A stretch of DNA of 64,000 nucleotides from positions 1,184,001-1,248,000 of the forward strand of contig CAWCAG010000005.1 in NCBI GenBank assembly GCA_963793425.1, read 5' to 3'. A program made the position numbers and the translations under genes. This stretch comes from an uncultured cyanobacterium. GTDB taxonomy: Bacteria > Cyanobacteriota > Cyanobacteriia > Cyanobacteriales > CAWCAG01. The notes under the pieces were generated by a model. That model did not search any database. It was not told the DNA's origin and saw only the letters and a program-made list of their open reading frames with translations. Shown here one piece after another: positions 11,823-19,993 of this stretch; positions within the stretch are counted from its first letter, which is position 1; each line of letters begins with the position of its first letter.

Positions 11823-13366
11823 ATGTCTTTTCTTGATCCTCTTTACGCTCTTTTCCTCCTCGTCATCATAGAAGTTGCTTGGTTGCTAAGGCAATTAATT
11901 CCTCAAGGTAAAACCCGCAACCAAATACAACTGTGGTTGTTTTTAATAGCTAGTATTGCTTTCTATGCCTCCTTACAGTGGTGGTATATTCCTTTACTCC
12001 TAATCATGGCTTTGCTTAACTTTTATCTTGGTAAAGCCATGGAGGAAAAAGTCAGTATAGGAGTTCAACAGGCGCAGGATCAAAATCTTTCTAACCAAGA
12101 ATGGGAAAACTTACAACAATCTTGGAATCGTAAGGCTACTAATATTCTGATTCTGGGTATTGTTGCCAACATCCTAGTTTTGGTGGCTTTTAAATATCTT
12201 CCTTTTCTTCTCAATAGCTTTGCTGCTAGCTTCAACTCAGCTTCAGCAAGTGAAAATGCTAGTTGGTTGAGCAAAAACTTGCTTGCCCCTTTAGGAATCT
12301 CTTTTTTTACTTTTGAATGTATTGCTTATCTAGTTGATATTTCCAGGGGTAGCAAAGCTAGTCGAAGTTTGTTGCAATTTACTAGTTATAAACTCTTTTT
12401 TCCTAAATTAATTTCTGGCCCAATTACTCGTTATCACGAATTAGCTAAACAATTTAATAGTGATCAAACCCCAGTTATCAATGACTATATTGAAGGATTT
12501 TGGCTTATTGCTTTGGGGGCAGTCAAAAAAGCTTTGGTAGCAGATCGCTTGGGGATTTTTGTGGATTTATGTTTTGGCAATCTGGAAAGGGCAGGTAGTG
12601 GCGATCTTTGGTTAGCGATTATTGCCTATGGTTTACAACTCTATTTTGATTTTAGCGGTTACGTGGACTTAGCTCGTGGTAGCGCTATGTTATTGGGCTT
12701 TAATCTGCCAGAAAATTTTAACTATCCTTACTTTAGTACTAGTATTGCTGACTTTTGGCGACGTTGGCATATGACCTTGGGAGATTGGTTACGCAATTAC
12801 TTATACTTCCCTTTAGGAGGCTCTCGTCAGGGTTTAGGGAGGACTTGCCTTAATTTATTATTGGTGATGCTTATTGCCGGAATTTGGCATGGTGCAGCTT
12901 GGGGTTATGTGGTTTGGGGAGGCTTACACGGTTTTGCTTTAGCTATACACCGCCTCACAGATACATTAGTAAAGAGGTTGAAGGGTTAACAGTTTGGTGG
13001 AAAAGCTGGCCAGGAATGGTTATGGCTTGGTTGCTTACTCAATTAATGGTCTTTACTTCTTGGATCTTTTTTCGTCTTCCGGATCTCCGGCAAGCTGGTT
13101 TAGTGATTGGACATTTATGGAACTATTCAGGAGATGTCCAGTTTGCCCAGAAGGTTTATGGAGAAGCAATTGGTTTGGGACAATATCAAGTTTCTGTGTT
13201 GATTACTTTAATATTTGTCGCTATGGCGATCGCCTATTCTATTCAACAAGGTTTGCAGTTAAGGCTAAATTGGCCTATTAAATTGCTCTTTGCTCCTATT
13301 TGCCTTTTGGGAGTTTGGCTTTTAGCCCCGGAAGGAGGGCTACCGTATATTTATTTTGATTTTTAA
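11823..13366 (+). pseudogene. MBOAT-family O-acyltransferase (AlgI/DltB-like), frameshifted near 12960-12985
   Basis: PLGISFFTF, YFDFSGY, FWRRWHMTL and GIWHGA in frame 1; the C-terminus (WIFFR...PYIYFDF) continues in another frame; may be a sequencing error. Confidence 0.8.
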
Positions 13367-13406
13367 AAACTGTTTGATGCTAAATCCGCAGTGTGATTAC
13401 ACTTTA

Positions 13407-13494
13407 GTAGGGTAGGCAAGATAAGCAAATTACATCAGCATCAAAAATTTATTTACTGTTGCCCACAAATAATTAACTAGGTAATGGTGGGCAA
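13407..13494. repeat. degenerate GTAG-type REP element
   Basis: GTAGGGTAGGCAA...TTGCCCAC...GGTGGGCAA. Confidence 0.5.
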
Positions 13495-13700
13495 ACATCA
13501 CAAAATGAGCTTGATAGACAACCTAATTATTTTTTTACACACTTTGACTAATACTGTTCTTTTGAAAGAATAGTTTTTCTGTTCGGAATAGTTGCGATCG
13601 CCTCCTCAAAATCCAGTTTGCACATCAGTTATTATAATTATCGACACTGAAACCAAGCTTTTGCTTAAGTAAGATTAACTATAATTTTTCTACCTGTCCT

Positions 13701-14075
13701 ATGCCAGAAAATAACCTTGCCGTTAATATTACTCTCTTCGATTCCCAACTAAGCGATGAACAACTCCAGGAAGATACAAGTAATCTTCGTGAAGAAATCA
13801 TGGAAGTGGAAGGAGTTCAAGAAGCAAATCTCGTTCCCATAACCCAAGCCCCAGTAGGTTCTAAAGGTATTGGTGATTTCTTAATGGGGCAACTGGAAGC
13901 TTCCATAACCGTTAAAGGTTTGAAAACCTTGGCTAACTTTTTAGGTAATAACCTCTACGGTAAAAAAATTAAAATCAAAGCGGAAGGAAACGGCAAGAAG
14001 TTGGATGTGGAAATTAATCGCCCTGAAGATTTACAGAAGATTATGCCGGAGATTGATGAGTTTATAAATGGTTGA
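13701..14075 (+). CDS. EACC1-like (effector-associated constant component 1) small protein
   Basis: 124 aa; acidic helix, APxGSKG loop, then an amphipathic segment; directly upstream of a caspase gene, the usual EACC1 context. Confidence 0.65.
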   Translation: MPENNLAVNITLFDSQLSDEQLQEDTSNLREEIMEVEGVQEANLVPITQAPVGSKGIGDFLMGQLEASITVKGLKTLANFLGNNLYGKKIKIKAEGNGKKLDVEINRPEDLQKIMPEIDEFING

Positions 14076-14080
14076 AAACT

Positions 14081-14158
14081 GCCCCTTAGCCCCCAATATT
14101 GGGTGAACAAGAGTAATCAAAAGCTCAAAGTCCCCCAGGATTGTGGGATTTAGGGGGC
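14081..14158. repeat. cyanobacterial palindromic intergenic repeat (CCCCCTAAATCCCCC..GGGGG type)
   Basis: gccccttagcccccaatattgggtg ... tcccccaggattgtgggatttagggggc; nested inverted repeats. Confidence 0.65.
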
Positions 14159-14193
14159 GATAAACTTTGCATTCTCAGAAAAAAAGTTAAGCA

Positions 14194-15789
14194 ATGAACA
14201 AACTAGCCCTCCTAGTCGGCATCAGCGAATATAAATCAGCATTGGAACCCTTACCCAGCGCTGAACAGGATGTGCTGGCTATGCAGCAGGTTTTGGAGAA
14301 TGAAGAGATGGGAGGATTTCGGGAAGTTATTCCCTTGGTTAATCCTCCCGTTCAAGACTTGCGGAGAGCTATTTATGACCTGTTTGCGGAACGGAATCAA
14401 GATGACTTACTTCTGTTTTATTTTTCTGGTCATGGGGTGAAAGATCAACATCGCAACCTCTATCTCACTACTCCAGAGACAGAAAAGAATCAAAGAGGCT
14501 CAGTTGTTACTCCCACTGCGATCGCAGCTAATTATCTGCAAAGTCAAATTAGTGCCAGTCGTTCGGAACGGATAGTCATAATTCTTGATTGCTGTTTTAG
14601 TGGGGCTTTTGCTAAGGGGATGACAGCAAAAGATGATGGGGAAGTGGATATTTTCGGGGAATTAGGAGGGAAAGGTAGGGCAATTTTAACTTCTTCTAGT
14701 TCAACGCAATATTCCTTTGAACAAGATGATTCCCAACTTTCTATTTACAGTCGCTATTTAATCGAAGGGATAAAAACGGGGGCCGCAGATCGGGATAATG
14801 ATGGCAGGATTTCTGTAGAAGAGTTACATAATTATGCTAAGGAGAAAGTACAACAAGCTTCTCCTGCGATGACACCGCAATTTTATCCTGTGGAGGAAGG
14901 GTACAAAATTTATCTGGCGCGATCGCCTCAAGATGATCCTCAACTGAAGTATCGTCAAGAGGCACAAAAACGCATTCGTAAGGGAAATTTTTCCCGTGTT
15001 GGTTTGCGTATCCTCCGGCAATTAAGAACAGATTTGGGCTTGTCTACAGAAGAGGCAGAAAAGATTGAAGCAGATGTTTTGCAACCCTACAGGCAATATG
15101 AGCAGAAACTGAAGGAGTTTACAGAAGCGGTGGAGGAGGTGATAGAGGATGAAGGAGGGATTTCCCCAGAAACCCTTGAGGAGTTGCAGGATTATCAAAA
15201 GCTTTTGAGTTTGGTTAATGAGGATGTGGAACCGATTATGGCGCAATATCTCGTCAAATTTAAACCTAAACCTGAACCCCAAGCTCACTCTCCCGCGAAG
15301 CCTCAGCCTAAATCTTCCGTTTCAGAAAAAGAAGCAGAAGTAGAACTAAAATCAGCTAAGGGAATTGACTACACTAAACTCCGGGACTTGCTAGCAGGAG
15401 GAGAGTGGCGTGAAGCAGATGAGGAAACAGCTAGAGTTATGCTTAAAGTTGCTGACAGGGAAGAGGAAGGTTGGTTAGATTCCGATTCAATAAAAATATT
15501 CCCCTGTGAAGACCTGCGTACCATTGACCAACTTTGGGTAAAATATAGCCAAGGACATTTTGGTTTTTCTGTGCAAAAACAGATTTATCAAGAAGTCCAG
15601 GAAGATTACGGAAAGTTTGGCGATCGCGTGGGGTGGAGAGTGAAGGAGACATGGATATATTATTCTGATACGACCTTCGGGTTAGATGCTCCTATGGGTC
15701 ATCTTCCGGGAGAATGGAATCCAAAGTGGCAAGCTGGTATTAAATCAAAGCGGGTATTCTTCTCTCGCGCTCAGACTTGTAGACTGTAG
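14194..15789 (+). CDS. caspase-like (peptidase C14) protease with helical linker and C-terminal GUN4-like domain
   Basis: Intact FSGHG and ILDCCFSG dyad; GUN4 motifs DYTKLRDLLA..W.EAD.ET, DLRTIDQLWVKYS.GHFGFSVQ, AP.GHLP. Confidence 0.9.
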   Translation: MNKLALLVGISEYKSALEPLPSAEQDVLAMQQVLENEEMGGFREVIPLVNPPVQDLRRAIYDLFAERNQDDLLLFYFSGHGVKDQHRNLYLTTPETEKNQRGSVVTPTAIAANYLQSQISASRSERIVIILDCCFSGAFAKGMTAKDDGEVDIFGELGGKGRAILTSSSSTQYSFEQDDSQLSIYSRYLIEGIKTGAADRDNDGRISVEELHNYAKEKVQQASPAMTPQFYPVEEGYKIYLARSPQDDPQLKYRQEAQKRIRKGNFSRVGLRILRQLRTDLGLSTEEAEKIEADVLQPYRQYEQKLKEFTEAVEEVIEDEGGISPETLEELQDYQKLLSLVNEDVEPIMAQYLVKFKPKPEPQAHSPAKPQPKSSVSEKEAEVELKSAKGIDYTKLRDLLAGGEWREADEETARVMLKVADREEEGWLDSDSIKIFPCEDLRTIDQLWVKYSQGHFGFSVQKQIYQEVQEDYGKFGDRVGWRVKETWIYYSDTTFGLDAPMGHLPGEWNPKWQAGIKSKRVFFSRAQTCRL

Positions 15790-15887
15790 CATATAAAGGG
15801 AAGAGTCGTTTGTAACAATCTTTTAACAGAGGGAGTTTCCACGAAACTACTAGTATTTGGGCAATTCCGATACCTGGCACTCTGGTG

Positions 15888-15948
15888 AGGAAGTTGTGGA
15901 AATGGGGAAGTGGGAAGTTGGGGAAATGGGGAAGTGGGGAATTGGGGT
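15888..15948 (+). repeat. G-rich short tandem repeat (GGGGAA(A/G)T)n
   Basis: ggaaatggggaagtgggaagttggggaaatggggaagtggggaattgggg. Confidence 0.75.
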
Positions 15949-15949
15949 T

Positions 15950-16234
15950 TTAGTTTCCTGTCCAAAAATAGGGATTTTCAAATAGCTTGCTTGTAGTTTT
16001 TGGGTCGTAACAATTAACCAAAACGAACTGTTTCGCCACCTCTGCCACCTCTTCTTGCAGCACTTCCCACCGCTCCCAAGGTAAACTCATTTGCCCAGGA
16101 GAAACTTTTTTTCTTCGCCCCTTCCTTTTTAGTTTCACGCCCCCCAACAATTTACTACCCCAGTGATATTTTCTTTCTGGTTTCGGTTTCGGTTTATATC
16201 TGGTACAAAACCCTTTGTATTTCCTGGCACATAC
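15950..16234 (-). mobile_element. C-terminal remnant of a cyanobacterial IS200-like/RAYT HUH (Y1) transposase
   Basis: Extending the 66-aa ORF upstream gives CARKYKGFCTRYKPKPKPERKYHWGSKLL...SPGQMSLPW...VAKQFVLVNCYDP, recognised from memory as the tail of these transposases; no start codon and no HUH core. Confidence 0.6.
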
Positions 16235-16263
16235 CTATTATTTATATTTTGCATATTTTGCTT

Positions 16264-16650
16264 TCAGTGAGAAACAGAATTTTCTTCTAACCACAGAGCC
16301 AATGAATCTTGATTTTCTCGATTTATGGCGACTCCTTCCATCATCATCACAACTTCTTGATTTGCAACCTCAAGGGAATAACCATTTAACTCTAAGAAAG
16401 TTGCCATCACTGCAAAAGCTGTCCTTTTATTCCCATCAATGAAAGGATGATTTTTTGTTAAAGCATATCCATAGGCAGCAGCTAATTCAAACAAACTCGG
16501 TTCACCATAACTCAAAAGATGTTGAGGTCTAGCCAAACTAGCTAAGAGAAGATTGTCATCTCTTATGCCTGGACTTCCTCCATGTTGAGTAATTTGATCG
16601 CCATGAATAGCCATAGCAATCTTCTCATTTATCCAATAAGGTTCGCTCAT
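16264..16650 (-). CDS. doc: Doc/Fic family toxin
   Basis: HGGSPGIRD, NHPFIDGNKRTA. Confidence 0.93.
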   Translation of the reverse strand: MSEPYWINEKIAMAIHGDQITQHGGSPGIRDDNLLLASLARPQHLLSYGEPSLFELAAAYGYALTKNHPFIDGNKRTAFAVMATFLELNGYSLEVANQEVVMMMEGVAINRENQDSLALWLEENSVSH

Positions 16651-16871
16651 TGAGCTAATTCACGCAAAGCATCTTCATATTTCTTACTTACCTTTTCATA
16701 AGCCGCCATTGCTTGAGCCAAGTTTCGCTCTTGGGTAGAAATTTGCACTCCATTTTCAGTTTCTACTAATAAGACTTCCTCTCCTTCAGCAATATCTAGC
16801 TTTTTTAAAACTTCGACGGGTAAAGTTATACCCAAGTCATCACCAATTTTTCTTATTTTGAGAATATACAT
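16647..16871 (-). CDS. AbrB/MazE-type antitoxin of Doc
   Basis: LKIRKIGDDLGITLP...ALRELA; 4-nt overlap with doc. Confidence 0.88.
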   Translation of the reverse strand: MYILKIRKIGDDLGITLPVEVLKKLDIAEGEEVLLVETENGVQISTQERNLAQAMAAYEKVSKKYEDALRELAQ

Positions 16872-16910
16872 AAAACAGAGAGATTAAGACTAGGAAATTA
16901 TTATAGTAGA

Positions 16911-17000
16911 TTCCAATAAAATCTCTTCAAACTCTGAGGTAGGTAGAATCTTGACTGTAAACTTGGGAATACCATCAAGTTTGTGTTGGTCAAGGGTCAT
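16911..17000 (-). pseudogene. truncated copy of the 76-aa gene at 18757-18987
   Basis: MTLDQHKLDGIPKFTVKILPTSEFEEILLE, after which homology ends. Confidence 0.75.
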
Positions 17001-17226
17001 AGCTACCTTTGTAAGTGCTATAAATACGGTAGCCCGGTAAAACCAGAGCGATACCTGCATTAGAATGTATCGTACCTGGATAATCTTCCTCGGCTAAACT
17101 ACCACCAAGGCGAATCCGCAATCTACCCAACCAAATATACAACCCTGGAATCAGAGTATCTAAACTATAAGCAATCGCCTGCAATTGTGAATCACTAGAT
17201 TCAGTTTTTTGTTCAGGAGTAGACAT
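16990..17226 (-). CDS. hypothetical 78-aa protein (copy 1)
   Basis: Reading frame conserved between two diverged copies. Confidence 0.65.
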   Translation of the reverse strand: MSTPEQKTESSDSQLQAIAYSLDTLIPGLYIWLGRLRIRLGGSLAEEDYPGTIHSNAGIALVLPGYRIYSTYKGSYDP

Positions 17227-17560
17227 GGGAAAACTAGAAACCTACCGTCAATATGTCCAAAAAATTCTCACTCAAAGAGCCAGCTTTGAGCAAAATGAAG
17301 ATGGAATTGAAACCCATCTTATCTTAGATACAGAAAGGGACTATTATCAACTCTTAGATATAGGTTGGCAGCAAGAAAAACAAGTATTTGACTGCTATTT
17401 ATACTTGCAAATTAAAAATGGCAAAATTTGGATCTATAGAGACTTAACGGATAGAGCTATTGCAGATGAGTTAAGAGAATTAGGCGTACCGACTGAAGAT
17501 ATTGTCCTCGCTTTTTACACTCCCCAAAGAAGACAATTTACTAACTTTGCTGTTTGCTGA
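17225..17560 (+). CDS. xisI: XisI family protein (no xisH upstream)
   Basis: YRQYVQKIL, ILDTERDYYQL..GW, IKNGKIWI..D.TD..IADEL..LGVP.EDIVLAF. Confidence 0.9.
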   Translation: MGKLETYRQYVQKILTQRASFEQNEDGIETHLILDTERDYYQLLDIGWQQEKQVFDCYLYLQIKNGKIWIYRDLTDRAIADELRELGVPTEDIVLAFYTPQRRQFTNFAVC

Positions 17561-17565
17561 AAATG

Positions 17566-17615
17566 TCAAGTAACAACAAATAACAAATTGGAGAGGTATT
17601 GGAAACTACAATCAC
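17566..17615 (-). pseudogene. N-terminal stub of a DUF3368 PIN-like toxin
   Basis: GTG start immediately after the UPF0175 stop: MIVVSNTSPICYLLLL. Confidence 0.65.
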
Positions 17616-17879
17616 CTAATTTCTCAACTTTTCAAGAGTTTGCAAATCCTTTTCCAATTCAACCTCATCGTAATTAAGATAAACTCCCATCTTTTGTAAA
17701 AAACTGTGGGTTGCTAAACGAGAAGGCAACTTAAGTATTTGTCTTACCTCTGCGGTACTAATTTCGCCACAACCATAAGCATCAGCAACTAGCCTTTCCA
17801 ATAATCGCTCAGAAAGATTTCCCCACAGCTTGTCTAACCTTTGAGCAATTTCATCAGGAATTTCAATGGCAACTTGCAT
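17616..17879 (-). CDS. UPF0175 family putative antitoxin
   Basis: MQVAIEIPD...AY..GEIST..V..IL.L.SR...FL...GVYLNYD..ELE.D. Confidence 0.85.
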   Translation of the reverse strand: MQVAIEIPDEIAQRLDKLWGNLSERLLERLVADAYGCGEISTAEVRQILKLPSRLATHSFLQKMGVYLNYDEVELEKDLQTLEKLRN

Positions 17880-18034
17880 AAAACTCAGCCTTTAAAACCT
17901 AAACTACTTCTATAGTAAAAGACTTAGCTGTACTTTATTCAGCGATAATGCGTCACCCTCGCCAAATTGAGGAGTCGTGCTGGTCAATAAGTAGTGCAAT
18001 AATAAAATAATCAGCAGCGTGTCTAACTTCAATC

Positions 18035-18343
18035 ATGACAAAACTAACCATCGAATTACCTAAAAAATTAGAGAAGCAACTATTAGCGGTAGCTAAACAA
18101 GAAAACCTTTCTTTAGAGACTTTTGTTTTGAAGCTGCTAACCAAGCTAGTGAGTTTCTACACAAAAAAAGAGCAAGATAATCTCTTGAATATACAAATTA
18201 TCAAGACAGACTCAATTAGAAAAAACTCTCTTGACCAAGCTAAAGATTTGGATTTTGCAACTCTTTTAGAAATCACTCAAGATACTTGGAAACAAGAAGA
18301 TGGCTTAGTTTATCAAGAAAAGGTTAGACAGGAGTGGTCGTGA
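18035..18343 (+). CDS. putative antitoxin (RHH-like N-terminus) of the VapC
   Basis: MTKLTIELP...; C-terminal DG..YQ..VRQEW overlaps the PIN gene start. Confidence 0.7.
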   Translation: MTKLTIELPKKLEKQLLAVAKQENLSLETFVLKLLTKLVSFYTKKEQDNLLNIQIIKTDSIRKNSLDQAKDLDFATLLEITQDTWKQEDGLVYQEKVRQEWS

Positions 18344-18756: not shown

Positions 18757-18987
18757 TCAACTAACATGATAAGCCGTAATTGCTATCCTACCGTCTGGAC
18801 TGTAAATCGCTTCAACTCGCCTAAACTGAGGATGACTCCACCAAACCTTAACGCGATTACCTCTAGCTGGGGCTGTGCCAATTTTACCGTATCCAGCTTC
18901 CAACAAAATCTCTTCAAATTCCGAAGTAGGTAGAATTTTGACTGTAAACTTAGGAATACCATCAAGTTGGTGCTGGTCAAGGGTCAT
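18757..18987 (-). CDS. hypothetical 76-aa protein, possible small RNase-toxin-like fold
   Basis: Overlaps the upstream 78-aa gene by 11 nt; ends ...YSPDGRIAITAYHV. Confidence 0.6.
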   Translation of the reverse strand: MTLDQHQLDGIPKFTVKILPTSEFEEILLEAGYGKIGTAPARGNRVKVWWSHPQFRRVEAIYSPDGRIAITAYHVS

Positions 18988-19213
18988 AGCTACCTTTGTA
19001 AGTGCTATAAATACGGTAGCCCGGTAAAACTATAGCAATACCGGCGTTTGTATGTATCGTACCTGGATAACCTTCCTCGGCTAAACTACCACCAAGGCGA
19101 ATTCGTAACCCACCCAACCAAATATACAACCCTGGAATCAGAGTATCTAAACTATAAGCGATCGCCTGCAATTGTGGATCACTAGATTTAATTTTTTGTT
19201 CAGGAATAGACAT
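18977..19213 (-). CDS. hypothetical 78-aa protein (copy 2)
   Basis: Close paralogue of 16990-17226. Confidence 0.65.
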   Translation of the reverse strand: MSIPEQKIKSSDPQLQAIAYSLDTLIPGLYIWLGGLRIRLGGSLAEEGYPGTIHTNAGIAIVLPGYRIYSTYKGSYDP

Positions 19214-19654: not shown

Positions 19655-19993
19655 ATGACAAAACTAACCATCGAATTACCTGAAAAATTAGAGAAGCAAT
19701 TATTAGCGGTGGCTAAGCGAGAAAATCTTTCTTTAGAGACTTTTATTTTAAAGCTGCTAACAAAGCTAGTGAGTTTCTATACGAAAAAAGAGCAAGATAA
19801 TCTCTTGAACATACAAATCATCAAGACAGACTCAATTAGAAAAAACTCTTTTGACCAAGCTAAAAATCTGGATTTTGCAACCTCAACATATCCCTGGTTA
19901 CATTCGTTTGGCAGGAATAGACAACCTAATTATCTTTTTGCCCACCCTAAGTTGACTGATACAAGCAAGAAATTTTCAAAAGTATACAAATAA
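19655..19993 (+). pseudogene. truncated/chimeric copy of the antitoxin at 18035
   Basis: Homology ends at about 19881 (LDFAT); no PIN gene follows. Confidence 0.75.

Follow-up and report, generated by a model that had tools for sequence, protein, structure and literature searches.

The caspase-GUN4 gene described here carries, directly behind its GUN4 domain, a short spacer that is translated yet behaves as non-coding DNA, being swapped wholesale on very short time scales. The arrangement is common to non-canonical GUN4 domains, in which the residues GHLP are followed by a spacer and then by a fixed nucleotide block. The readability of this block in three frames is far above chance. Taken together, the variable spacer, the three-frame block and a neighbouring gene of the HUH type appear to be a hitherto undescribed means of protein variation. 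The features of the locus are collected in Table 1, with positions counted in the window, that is, the whole stretch of 64,000 nucleotides that was analysed.

Table 1. Features of the caspase-GUN4 locus and the evidence on which each was placed
Feature	Position	Strand	Evidence
Caspase-GUN4 gene, 531 aa	14194..15789	+	Pfam and NCBIfam profile matches
GUN4 domain, GHLP end at 15697-15708	15352..15711	+	profile match and AlphaFold model
Hypervariable translated spacer, 16 codons / 48 bases in the window	15709..15756	+	allele comparison, low pLDDT
Three-frame block, hhSR...stop in every frame	15757..15796	+	reading of frames; stops 15780, 15787, 15794
Conserved element of ~120 nt, 3' end ...TCCGATACCTGGCAC	15757..15880	+	nhmmer, E 8e-22
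Second polymorphic junction and G-rich tandem repeat (15885-15947)	15875..15947	.	contig comparison, Tandem Repeats Finder
C-terminal remnant of a RAYT-like Y1 (HUH) transposase gene, catalytic domain missing	15950..16234	-	tblastn

Residues 3-230 of the window protein match Peptidase_C14 in Pfam (E 2.4e-20), and residues 387-506 belong to the GUN4 family (PF05419; E 1.7e-44, 151.8 bits against a curated cut-off of 29.2). The protein also scores above the cut-off of the NCBIfam model 'caspase, EACC1-associated type' (163.7 against 140 bits). A GUN4 fold including the terminal helix is predicted for it: the AlphaFold model of the GUN4 part has a mean pLDDT of 84.5, and its top PDB matches were the GUN4 structures 7e2t, 1z3x and 4xkb, at a TM of ~0.76. 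Within this model the spacer is predicted to be disordered (pLDDT <50) and the frame-A tail forms a predicted helix (model residues 137-146, pLDDT ~92), as does the frame-B tail (pLDDT 86-90). A search of congener G001 for an orthologue of the window gene found none, the similarity being at the level of domains only.

The letters of the block directly 3' of the spacer are TTCTTCTCTCGCGCTCAGACTTGTAGACTGTAGCATATAA. A preliminary description of this DNA had claimed that the GUN4 tail is readable in three frames, and the stops fall where it had put them: frame A, the frame of the gene, gives FFSRAQTCRL* (stop 15787), the +1 frame gives SSLALRLVDCSI (stop 15794) and the +2 frame gives LLSRSDL (stop 15780). 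The three recurring C-termini that it had named for GUN4 proteins are real, since 81 of the best 150 representatives among 5416 GUN4 hits end in one of the three motifs, as assigned by regular expressions with an approximate split between A and B. The block was present at 73 of 81 sampled cyanobacterial GUN4 gene ends, of which 36 fall in frame class A, 19 in B and 18 in C, and its consensus is identical across the three classes; all three frames are used by paralogues and orthologues. The block can be read as each of the three motifs, stop included, at 35 of 72 loci, whereas of the synonymous-codon redraws of type-A blocks (n=7000) only 0.10% contained the B motif and 0.16% the C motif. On a tree of 72 tips the frame label changes at least 27 times, against a mean of 31.5 for shuffled labels. 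Metagenome contigs fetched by the block alone had GUN4 upstream in 67 of 71 assessable hits, and used the frames in the proportion 21:20:16. Because the block codes for the last helix (hhSR...) and a stop in three frames, a spacer of any length results in a complete protein. We considered programmed frameshifting to one 'true' frame and dropped this idea, given how plentiful proteins of each class are and that the frames are about equally used. A 20-mer of the block had 0 matches in viral contigs.

The stretch after GHLP had been described as highly variable, and within one population this proved to be the case for exactly 15709-15756. In four metagenome runs from one study and in two near-identical database proteins, these bases are swapped for unrelated sequence of other lengths, the population evidence being assembled contigs and not raw reads. 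The contigs of runs X2 and X4 have a common spacer allele, 15 substitutions and 8 gap letters away from the window; for the separate allele of run X3 these counts are 19 and 12, and the X1 contigs end at 15708 and restart at 15757, which are the two spacer borders. On either side, 0 differences were listed for 15300-15708 (409 bases) and for 15757-15874 (118 bases). The X2 allele is 2 nt shorter and consequently the block is in frame C. The database proteins P0152 and P0153 (96-98% identical) are 0-4 residues off the window protein before GHLP and have a completely different spacer, with both tails in frame C. At least four mutually unalignable spacer alleles exist in the population, and three of four alleles of the gene use frame C, the window itself using frame A. 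The NACHT-GUN4 paralogue, which has the element and no RAYT remnant, keeps the same tail in three further alleles, whose differences (4-8 residues) lie outside it. The comparison of a varying, remnant-bearing locus with an invariant one is of one locus against one locus.

Replacement is also seen between genomes. Within the sets L020/L024 and L142/L161/L193, the GUN4 domains are 93-98% identical, the element and RAYT gene are 95-100% identical, and the spacers are unalignable; the spacer is replaced too in three pairs without a nearby RAYT gene (L150/L195, L028/L034 and L041/L049). The base composition of the spacers (G 0.42, T 0.32, A 0.15, C 0.11) is equal at all three codon positions. In-frame stops amount to 2 per 1400 codons. 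Off-frame stops are no rarer than composition predicts (122 observed, 120.7 predicted), and a frame-agnostic design of the spacer was rejected on these grounds. Direct copies of 7-mers from the flanks are enriched in the spacers (45 versus 7.7, and 58 versus 10.8); reverse-complement copies are weak or absent, which led us to reject foldback synthesis.

The block is the opening ~40 nt of an element of ~120 nt, to which the ~90 bp of non-coding sequence reported in the preliminary description also belongs. The stretch from TCTCTCGCG to CCTGGCAC measures 118 nt at 31 of the 39 loci, and the 3' motif of the element is seen solely behind GUN4 genes. Beyond 15874, the other border of the element, the contigs of runs X1, X2 and X4 diverge. 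The G-rich repeat that follows, likewise reported earlier, was located at 15885-15947 and has periods of 8 and 24 according to Tandem Repeats Finder. A structured RNA was rejected, with no relevant Rfam hit at six loci or in window positions 13000-18000 and no pair from RNAalifold on 37 elements. When the element was folded as single-stranded DNA, eight folds did not surpass shuffles (z -1.0 to +0.9); the sole recurrent feature is a 5-bp hairpin, mutated in the window; Y1 enzymes normally require hairpins. Neither a promoter nor a terminator stood out beyond chance in 15500-16400. By eye, the element consensus contains TTTACA-17-TATGTT, which resembles a minus-strand promoter. A minus-strand open reading frame across the element is open in the window (15740-15880) but has a stop in the consensus, and was also rejected.

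The gene converging on the far end of the element had been taken for an IS200/RAYT-like transposase tail, and its remnant does match a Y1 transposase homologue: it is 51% identical to residues 174-259 of the ~260-aa L053 homologue (tblastn), and the genome contains no other copy. Pfam gave no match for the remnant itself. Its intact homologues match Y1_Tnp (E 4e-17 and 2e-20) and have visible HIH and RYIHANP motifs, which identifies the Y1/HUH domain, a part that the window copy lacks. Scores fell below the cut-off for both the RAYT model NF047646 (66.7 bits, cut-off 80) and the IS200 model (22.4, cut-off 55), and a PDB sequence search with the RAYT homologue gave no hit at E 0.01. The suggested linkage of the block to a Y1/HUH gene was borne out in 41 related genomes, where 17 of 20 assessable loci of the RAYT clade abut the element and GUN4. 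Matches to this clade number 0-4 per genome, many of them fragments, and a full or remnant RAYT gene lies behind 20 of 65 block-bearing ends. An intact cognate RAYT gene was found neither in the window's genome nor in the congener, and neither the length nor the G+T content of the spacer, nor the block score, varied clearly with RAYT status, the numbers being small.

A candidate mechanism suggested by these sequence comparisons, to which we give somewhat less than an even chance, is that HUH-linked breaks recur at the border of the element and are refilled with errors, an outcome that would be tolerated since every frame of the block is coding. Either the HUH enzyme or a different activity recognising the two borders of the element would repeatedly break the DNA at the border of spacer and block. 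Resection would then proceed back to the selected GHLP codons, and refilling would be error-prone and partly templated by microhomology, each round producing a new spacer and so varying a surface loop of the sensor domain. The cognate gene being degraded here, the alleles might reflect earlier activity, or an enzyme supplied by other strains or by paralogous genes. More specifically, this could be a targeted diversifier independent of reverse transcriptase, in which a domesticated RAYT-like HUH nuclease cuts the element border behind GUN4, the refill yields junction-type diversity in a loop of the sensor, and a terminal block that has evolved to code for the closing helix and a stop in each frame makes every outcome productive; this we propose tentatively, while leaning against it. 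The preliminary description had already tied such diversification to the HUH enzyme. What speaks for its proposal is the variability, the use of frames, the block and the linkage, and what speaks against it is that only a remnant of the gene is present, that linkers are replaced where the gene is lacking, and that there are no strong hairpins.

Perhaps no dedicated enzyme is involved, which we regard as rather unlikely. The spacer would then be an unconstrained loop beside a polypyrimidine tract, altered by slippage, local duplication and low-complexity expansion; frame changes would be tolerated since the block happens to be coding in each frame, and the RAYT gene would be a long-standing neighbour whose own flank is the distal element. 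The predicted disorder of the spacer, its composition without codon periodicity, the enrichment of direct flank words and the replacements without a nearby RAYT gene are all consistent with this, as is the frequency of heptamer and octamer tandem repeats around GUN4-block loci. The spacers of the orthologous pair L041/L049 differ by several indels and can still be aligned, and five Microcoleus orthologues have an unchanged spacer at 93-97% domain identity. However, slippage is expected to give length variants of one motif and not unrelated sequence, and what we find is at least four unalignable 48-nt alleles between flanks free of differences, with borders that can be placed to the single base and fall on the two ends of the element. 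The comparable loop of a paralogue does not vary, and the near-exclusive presence of the RAYT clade at GUN4 elements would be left unexplained. Old spacer alleles might instead be kept by diversifying selection and shuffled between strains and paralogues by homologous recombination or gene conversion, with the GUN4 domain and the block as homology arms. Paralogues with near-identical arms do occur within one genome, the frame distribution of the window gene's alleles fits, and in-frame stops have been purged. Even so, this is very unlikely: divergence does not rise beside the spacer as expected for an old balanced polymorphism, a donor of the window's spacer is absent from the genome, and a composition without a codon period speaks against the peptide being under selection.

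It is quite improbable, too, that GUN4 domain, spacer, element and RAYT gene together form a single-strand transposon of the IS200/IS605 kind, with the domain as cargo, landing at the 3' ends of signalling genes, such that the block would correspond to a transposon end, or to an internal site resembling one, and the spacer to a scar of insertion or excision. Such a unit is suggested by L142/L161/L193, which are 93-100% identical from ~50-120 nt before GUN4 to just past the RAYT start, with an N-terminal gene part merely 57-85% identical and an unrelated far flank. The contigs L020 and L024 have a common start point ahead of the GUN4 domain, and where GUN4 domains occur in tandem the block between them is read through. 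In Microcystis-type loci a block-like motif and a 7-bp hairpin were seen by eye 20 nt past the RAYT start, with another block-like motif before the domain; nevertheless, extra block-like copies around the GUN4 domain and the RAYT gene are too weak to be detected by the sequence model R1. A conserved second end beyond the RAYT gene was not detected, nor was any conserved sequence found there in other genera. The block is present in 1-3 copies per genome, those within a genome being as diverged as those between genomes, and RAYT-gene identity tracks that of the neighbouring GUN4 domain (r = 0.73 over 78 non-independent pairs), both of which argue against a mobile unit, as does variation of the window alleles in situ at one locus. 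Y1 transposition is seamless, as with IS608 and ISDra2, and therefore new spacers are not expected from it. Finally, a conventional diversity-generating retroelement (DGR) acting in trans is contradicted by the data and has next to no probability. The genome does contain 7 RVT_1 matches, and passages of PMC7517822 and PMC7159879 describe cyanobacterial DGR targets bearing the same N-terminal partner domains. Against this, no match to a reverse transcriptase lies within the window (the nearest is ~40 kb off on the contig), and the alleles differ in length (8-12 gap letters) and at all four bases. In agreement with the preliminary description, which had proposed variation without a reverse transcriptase, no template was found: 15640-15800 has no second copy in the whole genome other than a paralogue's block (blastn, word size 7).

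Should they hold, three points would be new. One is a natural sequence maintained so that each of three frames gives an equivalent protein end, with all three actually used. Another is a spacer that is translated and yet changes far more quickly than the DNA on either side, independently of reverse transcriptase. The third is a dedicated HUH/RAYT clade linked to a single protein domain, which would provide 'domesticated transposases' with a definite function. Fusions of caspase, kinase and NACHT domains are assigned to conflict systems of multicellular cyanobacteria in passages of PMC7159879 and PMC8195603; under the diversifier reading these proteins would have a second route to hypervariation beside DGRs, which bears on how sensors keep pace with their targets.

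With DGRs the GUN4 system shares a variation that is sharply concentrated at the 3' end of the ligand-binding domain in which kinases, caspases and NACHT proteins terminate; in both, the variable part is directly followed by a fixed sequence, with an accessory gene adjoining. It differs in having no reverse transcriptase, template repeat or adenine-specific substitution, and in exchanging whole segments of variable length with a change of reading frame. As in REP/REPIN-RAYT systems (REPtrons), the neighbour is a Y1/HUH protein with the REP-associated tyrosine transposase model as its best NCBIfam match, and it is slow-evolving and low-copy like the cyanobacterial Group 4 RAYTs reported in bioRxiv 10.1101/119735. 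Unlike in REPtrons, it scores below the curated cut-off given above and has a C-terminal extension of ~120 aa, and the DNA is a low-copy ~120-nt element on one side only, always behind GUN4, instead of a dispersed palindromic repeat. IS200/IS605 elements and their non-autonomous derivatives likewise have a Y1 transposase domain, end-like sequences in direct orientation and exact borders around a discrete short unit; the GUN4 module, in contrast, lacks multiple identical copies, clear subterminal hairpins and a constant target tetranucleotide at its border, and its transposase co-diverges with the neighbouring host domain. Contingency loci, too, have within a coding region a mutable tract that changes the downstream frame, but the GUN4 alleles are unrelated sequences and not different counts of one repeat unit, and the downstream block is conserved in its nucleotides to code in three frames. 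Since every frame gives a complete product, the locus is not an on/off switch. The junctional diversity of V(D)J recombination offers an analogy only, the GUN4 system being bacterial, with unrelated enzymes and no recombination signal sequences or gene segments known; what the two have in common is fixed coding ends joined by a junction of variable length and sequence, G-rich and partly templated by its flanks.

The caspase-GUN4 gene and its surroundings are listed in the table. The preliminary description had read its tail as GHLP, 16 codons and then a block open in all three frames, each with its own ending, and this reading was borne out.

Features of the caspase-GUN4 locus (window positions unless residues are given)
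Feature	Position	Strand	Remarks
Caspase-GUN4 gene	14194-15789	+	531 aa
Peptidase_C14 caspase domain	residues 3-230		of the 531-aa protein; also NCBIfam 'caspase, EACC1-associated type', score over cut-off
GUN4 domain	residues 387-506		C-terminal in the 531-aa protein
GHLP codons	15697-15708	+	
Spacer	15709-15756	+	16 codons, between GHLP and block
Three-frame block	from 15757	+	in frame FFSRAQTCRL* (frame A); +1 SSLALRLVDCSI* (frame B); +2 LLSRSDL* (frame C)
Non-coding stretch 3' of gene	to 15880		ends ...CCGATACCTGGCAC
G-rich tandem repeat	15885-15947		
Open frame, transposase remnant	15950-16234	-	

Immediately 5' of the EACC1-type caspase gene lies a 124-aa ORF (13701-14075, +) with no match in Pfam or NCBIfam, which may be a constant partner component of such caspase systems. 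A related genome (G002) contains eight scattered short stretches that match the G-rich 8/24-nt repeat at 80-90% identity, so this seems to be a dispersed repeat family. On its far side the transposase remnant is adjoined by a Doc-family toxin (TIGR01550) and its partner antidote (TIGR02609) at 16264-16871 (-). Beyond these, two pairs of small ORFs, near-identical within each pair and spaced about 2 kb apart (16990-17226 and 18977-19213, -; 18035-18343 and 19655-19993, +) suggest a small module duplicated recently.

The window's genome has six GUN4 genes, and two close NACHT-type paralogues among them read one block in different frames, ending in LFSRTKACNL* and IAQRLAVCKI*. The three C-termini that had been proposed are real: each is common in the best 150 of 5416 representative GUN4 matches, 81 of these 150 closing with one of the three motifs by regular expression (with an approximate A/B split), and all of them derive from one DNA sequence. 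We then used a set of 85 loci, six from the window's genome and 79 from genome contigs, in which 81 GUN4 ends were found. The block is present at 73 of these, matching 20-28 of 29 template positions, and the frame in use is A in 36, B in 19 and C in 18. The block consensus is identical in every letter across the three frame classes, and its conservation profile stays the same whichever frame is used. In 35 of 72 loci the block can be read as each of the three motifs, stops included; 7000 trials in which type-A blocks were redrawn with synonymous codons produced the B motif at a rate of 0.10% and the C motif at 0.16%. The block works in each frame because every frame gives h-h-S-R, encoded in the protein alignment by TCT CGC, TCG CGT or TCG AGA. 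AlphaFold models, whose underlying alignments include all three tail types, predict a confident terminal helix on the GUN4 fold for both the frame-A tail of the window and the frame-B tail of locus L047, with spacer pLDDT below 50 in both. On a 72-domain tree the frame label requires 27 changes; shuffled labels average 31.5, and 7 of 200 shuffles are equally low. Tandem GUN4 domains occur in L193 (about 900-1000), where the reading frame continues through the block of the first (..LFSRVEICK-TITETPKP..) into the second, and database proteins also show internal tails of all three types.

Conservation extends beyond the stop codons, the block being the start of a longer element. This element spans 118 nt, from TCTCTCGCG to CCTGGCAC, in 31 of the 39 loci retaining its 3' motif, in agreement with the suggestion of a conserved downstream block. 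The window's genome holds two full copies and one partial copy, each 3' of a GUN4 gene, and the block numbers 1-3 copies per genome (at most 3 mismatches, five genomes). Searched alone in 41 related genomes, the 3' motif was found 12 times, in 9 of them, and its reversed control never; all 12 sit 3' of a block, with a GUN4 signature in 10 by regular expression and an eleventh GUN4 (L097) detected by tblastn. Scanning metagenome contigs with 20 nt of the block yielded 75 distinct contexts, 71 with sufficient upstream DNA, of which 67 have GUN4 upstream; the rest comprise two degraded GUN4 genes, one orphan and one block ending an unrelated ORF. In the metagenome contig L143, half a block ends an unrelated ORF as ...ASRVETCKV*, the sole such case seen without a GUN4 domain. 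The block had no match in viral contigs. Six Microcoleus loci (L040, L041, L049, L052, L060 and L079) show a stretch partly resembling the block (model positions 15-49) at about 1536-1576, some 1.4 kb 5' of the real block and near the start of the orthologous region.

At many loci a gene of about 260 aa, with a Y1_Tnp domain and HIH and RYIHANP motifs, meets the element's far end within about 5-60 nt. In NCBIfam it matches the REP-associated tyrosine transposase model best, with a score under cut-off. The window's remnant aligns solely to residues 174-259, a non-catalytic extension of the Y1 homologue; beyond it the window's genome contains no further copy of this RAYT-like gene, and its six other Y1_Tnp genes were unmatched by the RAYT query at E 0.01. 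Downstream DNA extended for at least 1200 nt at 65 block-bearing ends; a full gene follows 7 of them, a remnant 13 and neither 45 (metagenome set, n=59: 9, 12 and 38). A reverse search of the 41 related genomes with the RAYT protein found 23 loci of the clade, three cut by contig ends; 17 of the 20 assessable adjoin element and GUN4, which upholds the proposed linkage to an HUH gene, and the other three comprise a full copy (G012:C418) and two N-terminal fragments. RAYT-gene identity tracks that of the neighbouring GUN4 (r = 0.73 over 78 non-independent pairs from 13 loci; means 0.74 and 0.58), and the pair is therefore inherited or copied together. In L053, which has an intact transposase gene, about 20 residues (KSAVGMDYS.LRDLLAAEKW) are duplicated in tandem at the N-terminal border of the GUN4 domain.

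Four sediment-metagenome runs, all from one study, supplied contigs for the population data. Across 15300-15708 and 15757-15874 the contigs show no listed difference from the window, and the spacer between is replaced, as had been expected of the stretch after GHLP. One allele, common to runs X2 and X4, carries 15 substitutions and 8 gap letters; that of X3 is different, at 19 substitutions and 12 gap letters, and the X1 contigs stop at 15708 and resume at 15757. Being 2 nt shorter than the window's, the X2 allele brings the block into frame C. The 90% cluster of the window protein adds two full-length proteins, which their source labels Spirulinaceae cyanobacterium, with 0-4 residue differences up to GHLP, unrelated spacers and then (F)LLSRSDL. 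Together, run contigs and these two independent proteins give at least four spacer alleles. Past 15874, the element's other border, contigs of three runs diverge. As a control, a NACHT-GUN4 paralogue with the element and without a transposase remnant keeps the same tail in three further alleles, which have 4-8 residue differences elsewhere.

Replacement recurs at other loci. L020 and L024, from one Microcystis assembly, have domains 97% identical and identical blocks, with spacers of 29 versus 63 nt and frames C and B. L142, L161 and L193 each have a full transposase gene, element and gene being 95-100% identical, and three unrelated spacers in three frames. The orthologous loci L041 and L049 (flanks 93-99% identical) are several indels apart and use different frames. 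The spacer is retained in five Microcoleus orthologues and in the pair L057/L065. Spacers are G+T-rich (median 75%) and C-poor, equally at all three codon positions; the window's own is not G+T-rich. Off-frame stops match the composition-based expectation and in-frame stops number 2 in 1400 codons, therefore translation must reach the block and the spacer peptide is not selected. Spacers are enriched several-fold in direct copies of 7-mers from the flanks (e.g. a second GHLP-coding piece, an extra CT-tract) and hardly in inverted ones.

From this anatomy of block, element, convergent gene and varying spacer we infer the cause of the variation. The loop might simply be of low complexity and intrinsically unstable. 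A neutral loop cannot be wholly rewritten several times beside more than 500 identical flanking bases. Some process must operate locally, bounded exactly on both sides, and on the right its boundary is where an element dedicated to a HUH gene begins. Perhaps the DNA is broken recurrently at the element border and the gap is refilled in an error-prone manner, partly templated by the flanks; this is the explanation we favour, tentatively.

Our caution over breakage and refilling has four reasons: the window's genome is without an intact gene, spacers are replaced also at loci with no RAYT gene in the vicinity, hairpins of the kind that Y1 substrates typically have are missing from the element, and the evidence comes from sequence comparison. 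A single-strand transposon carrying the GUN4 domain would fit the sharply bounded module common to L142, L161 and L193, as well as weak end-like motifs that a sequence model did not confirm. Alternatively, old spacer alleles could be moved by recombination.

A diversity-generating retroelement (DGR) is excluded for practical purposes. Passages of the open-access literature consulted (PMC7517822, PMC7159879, PMC8195603, PMC3733652, bioRxiv 10.1101/119735) nowhere tie GUN4 tails to a hypervariable spacer, a three-frame block or a RAYT gene. They present GUN4 as a sensor domain that cyanobacteria use in conflict systems (PMC7159879, PMC8195603) and describe the targets of cyanobacterial DGRs, with separate mentions of GUN4-like domains and of IS200/IS605 genes close to variable proteins (PMC7517822). 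They also cover tagged REPs, cyanobacterial families included (PMC3733652), and the Group 4 RAYTs, which are common in cyanobacteria and slow-evolving (bioRxiv 10.1101/119735).
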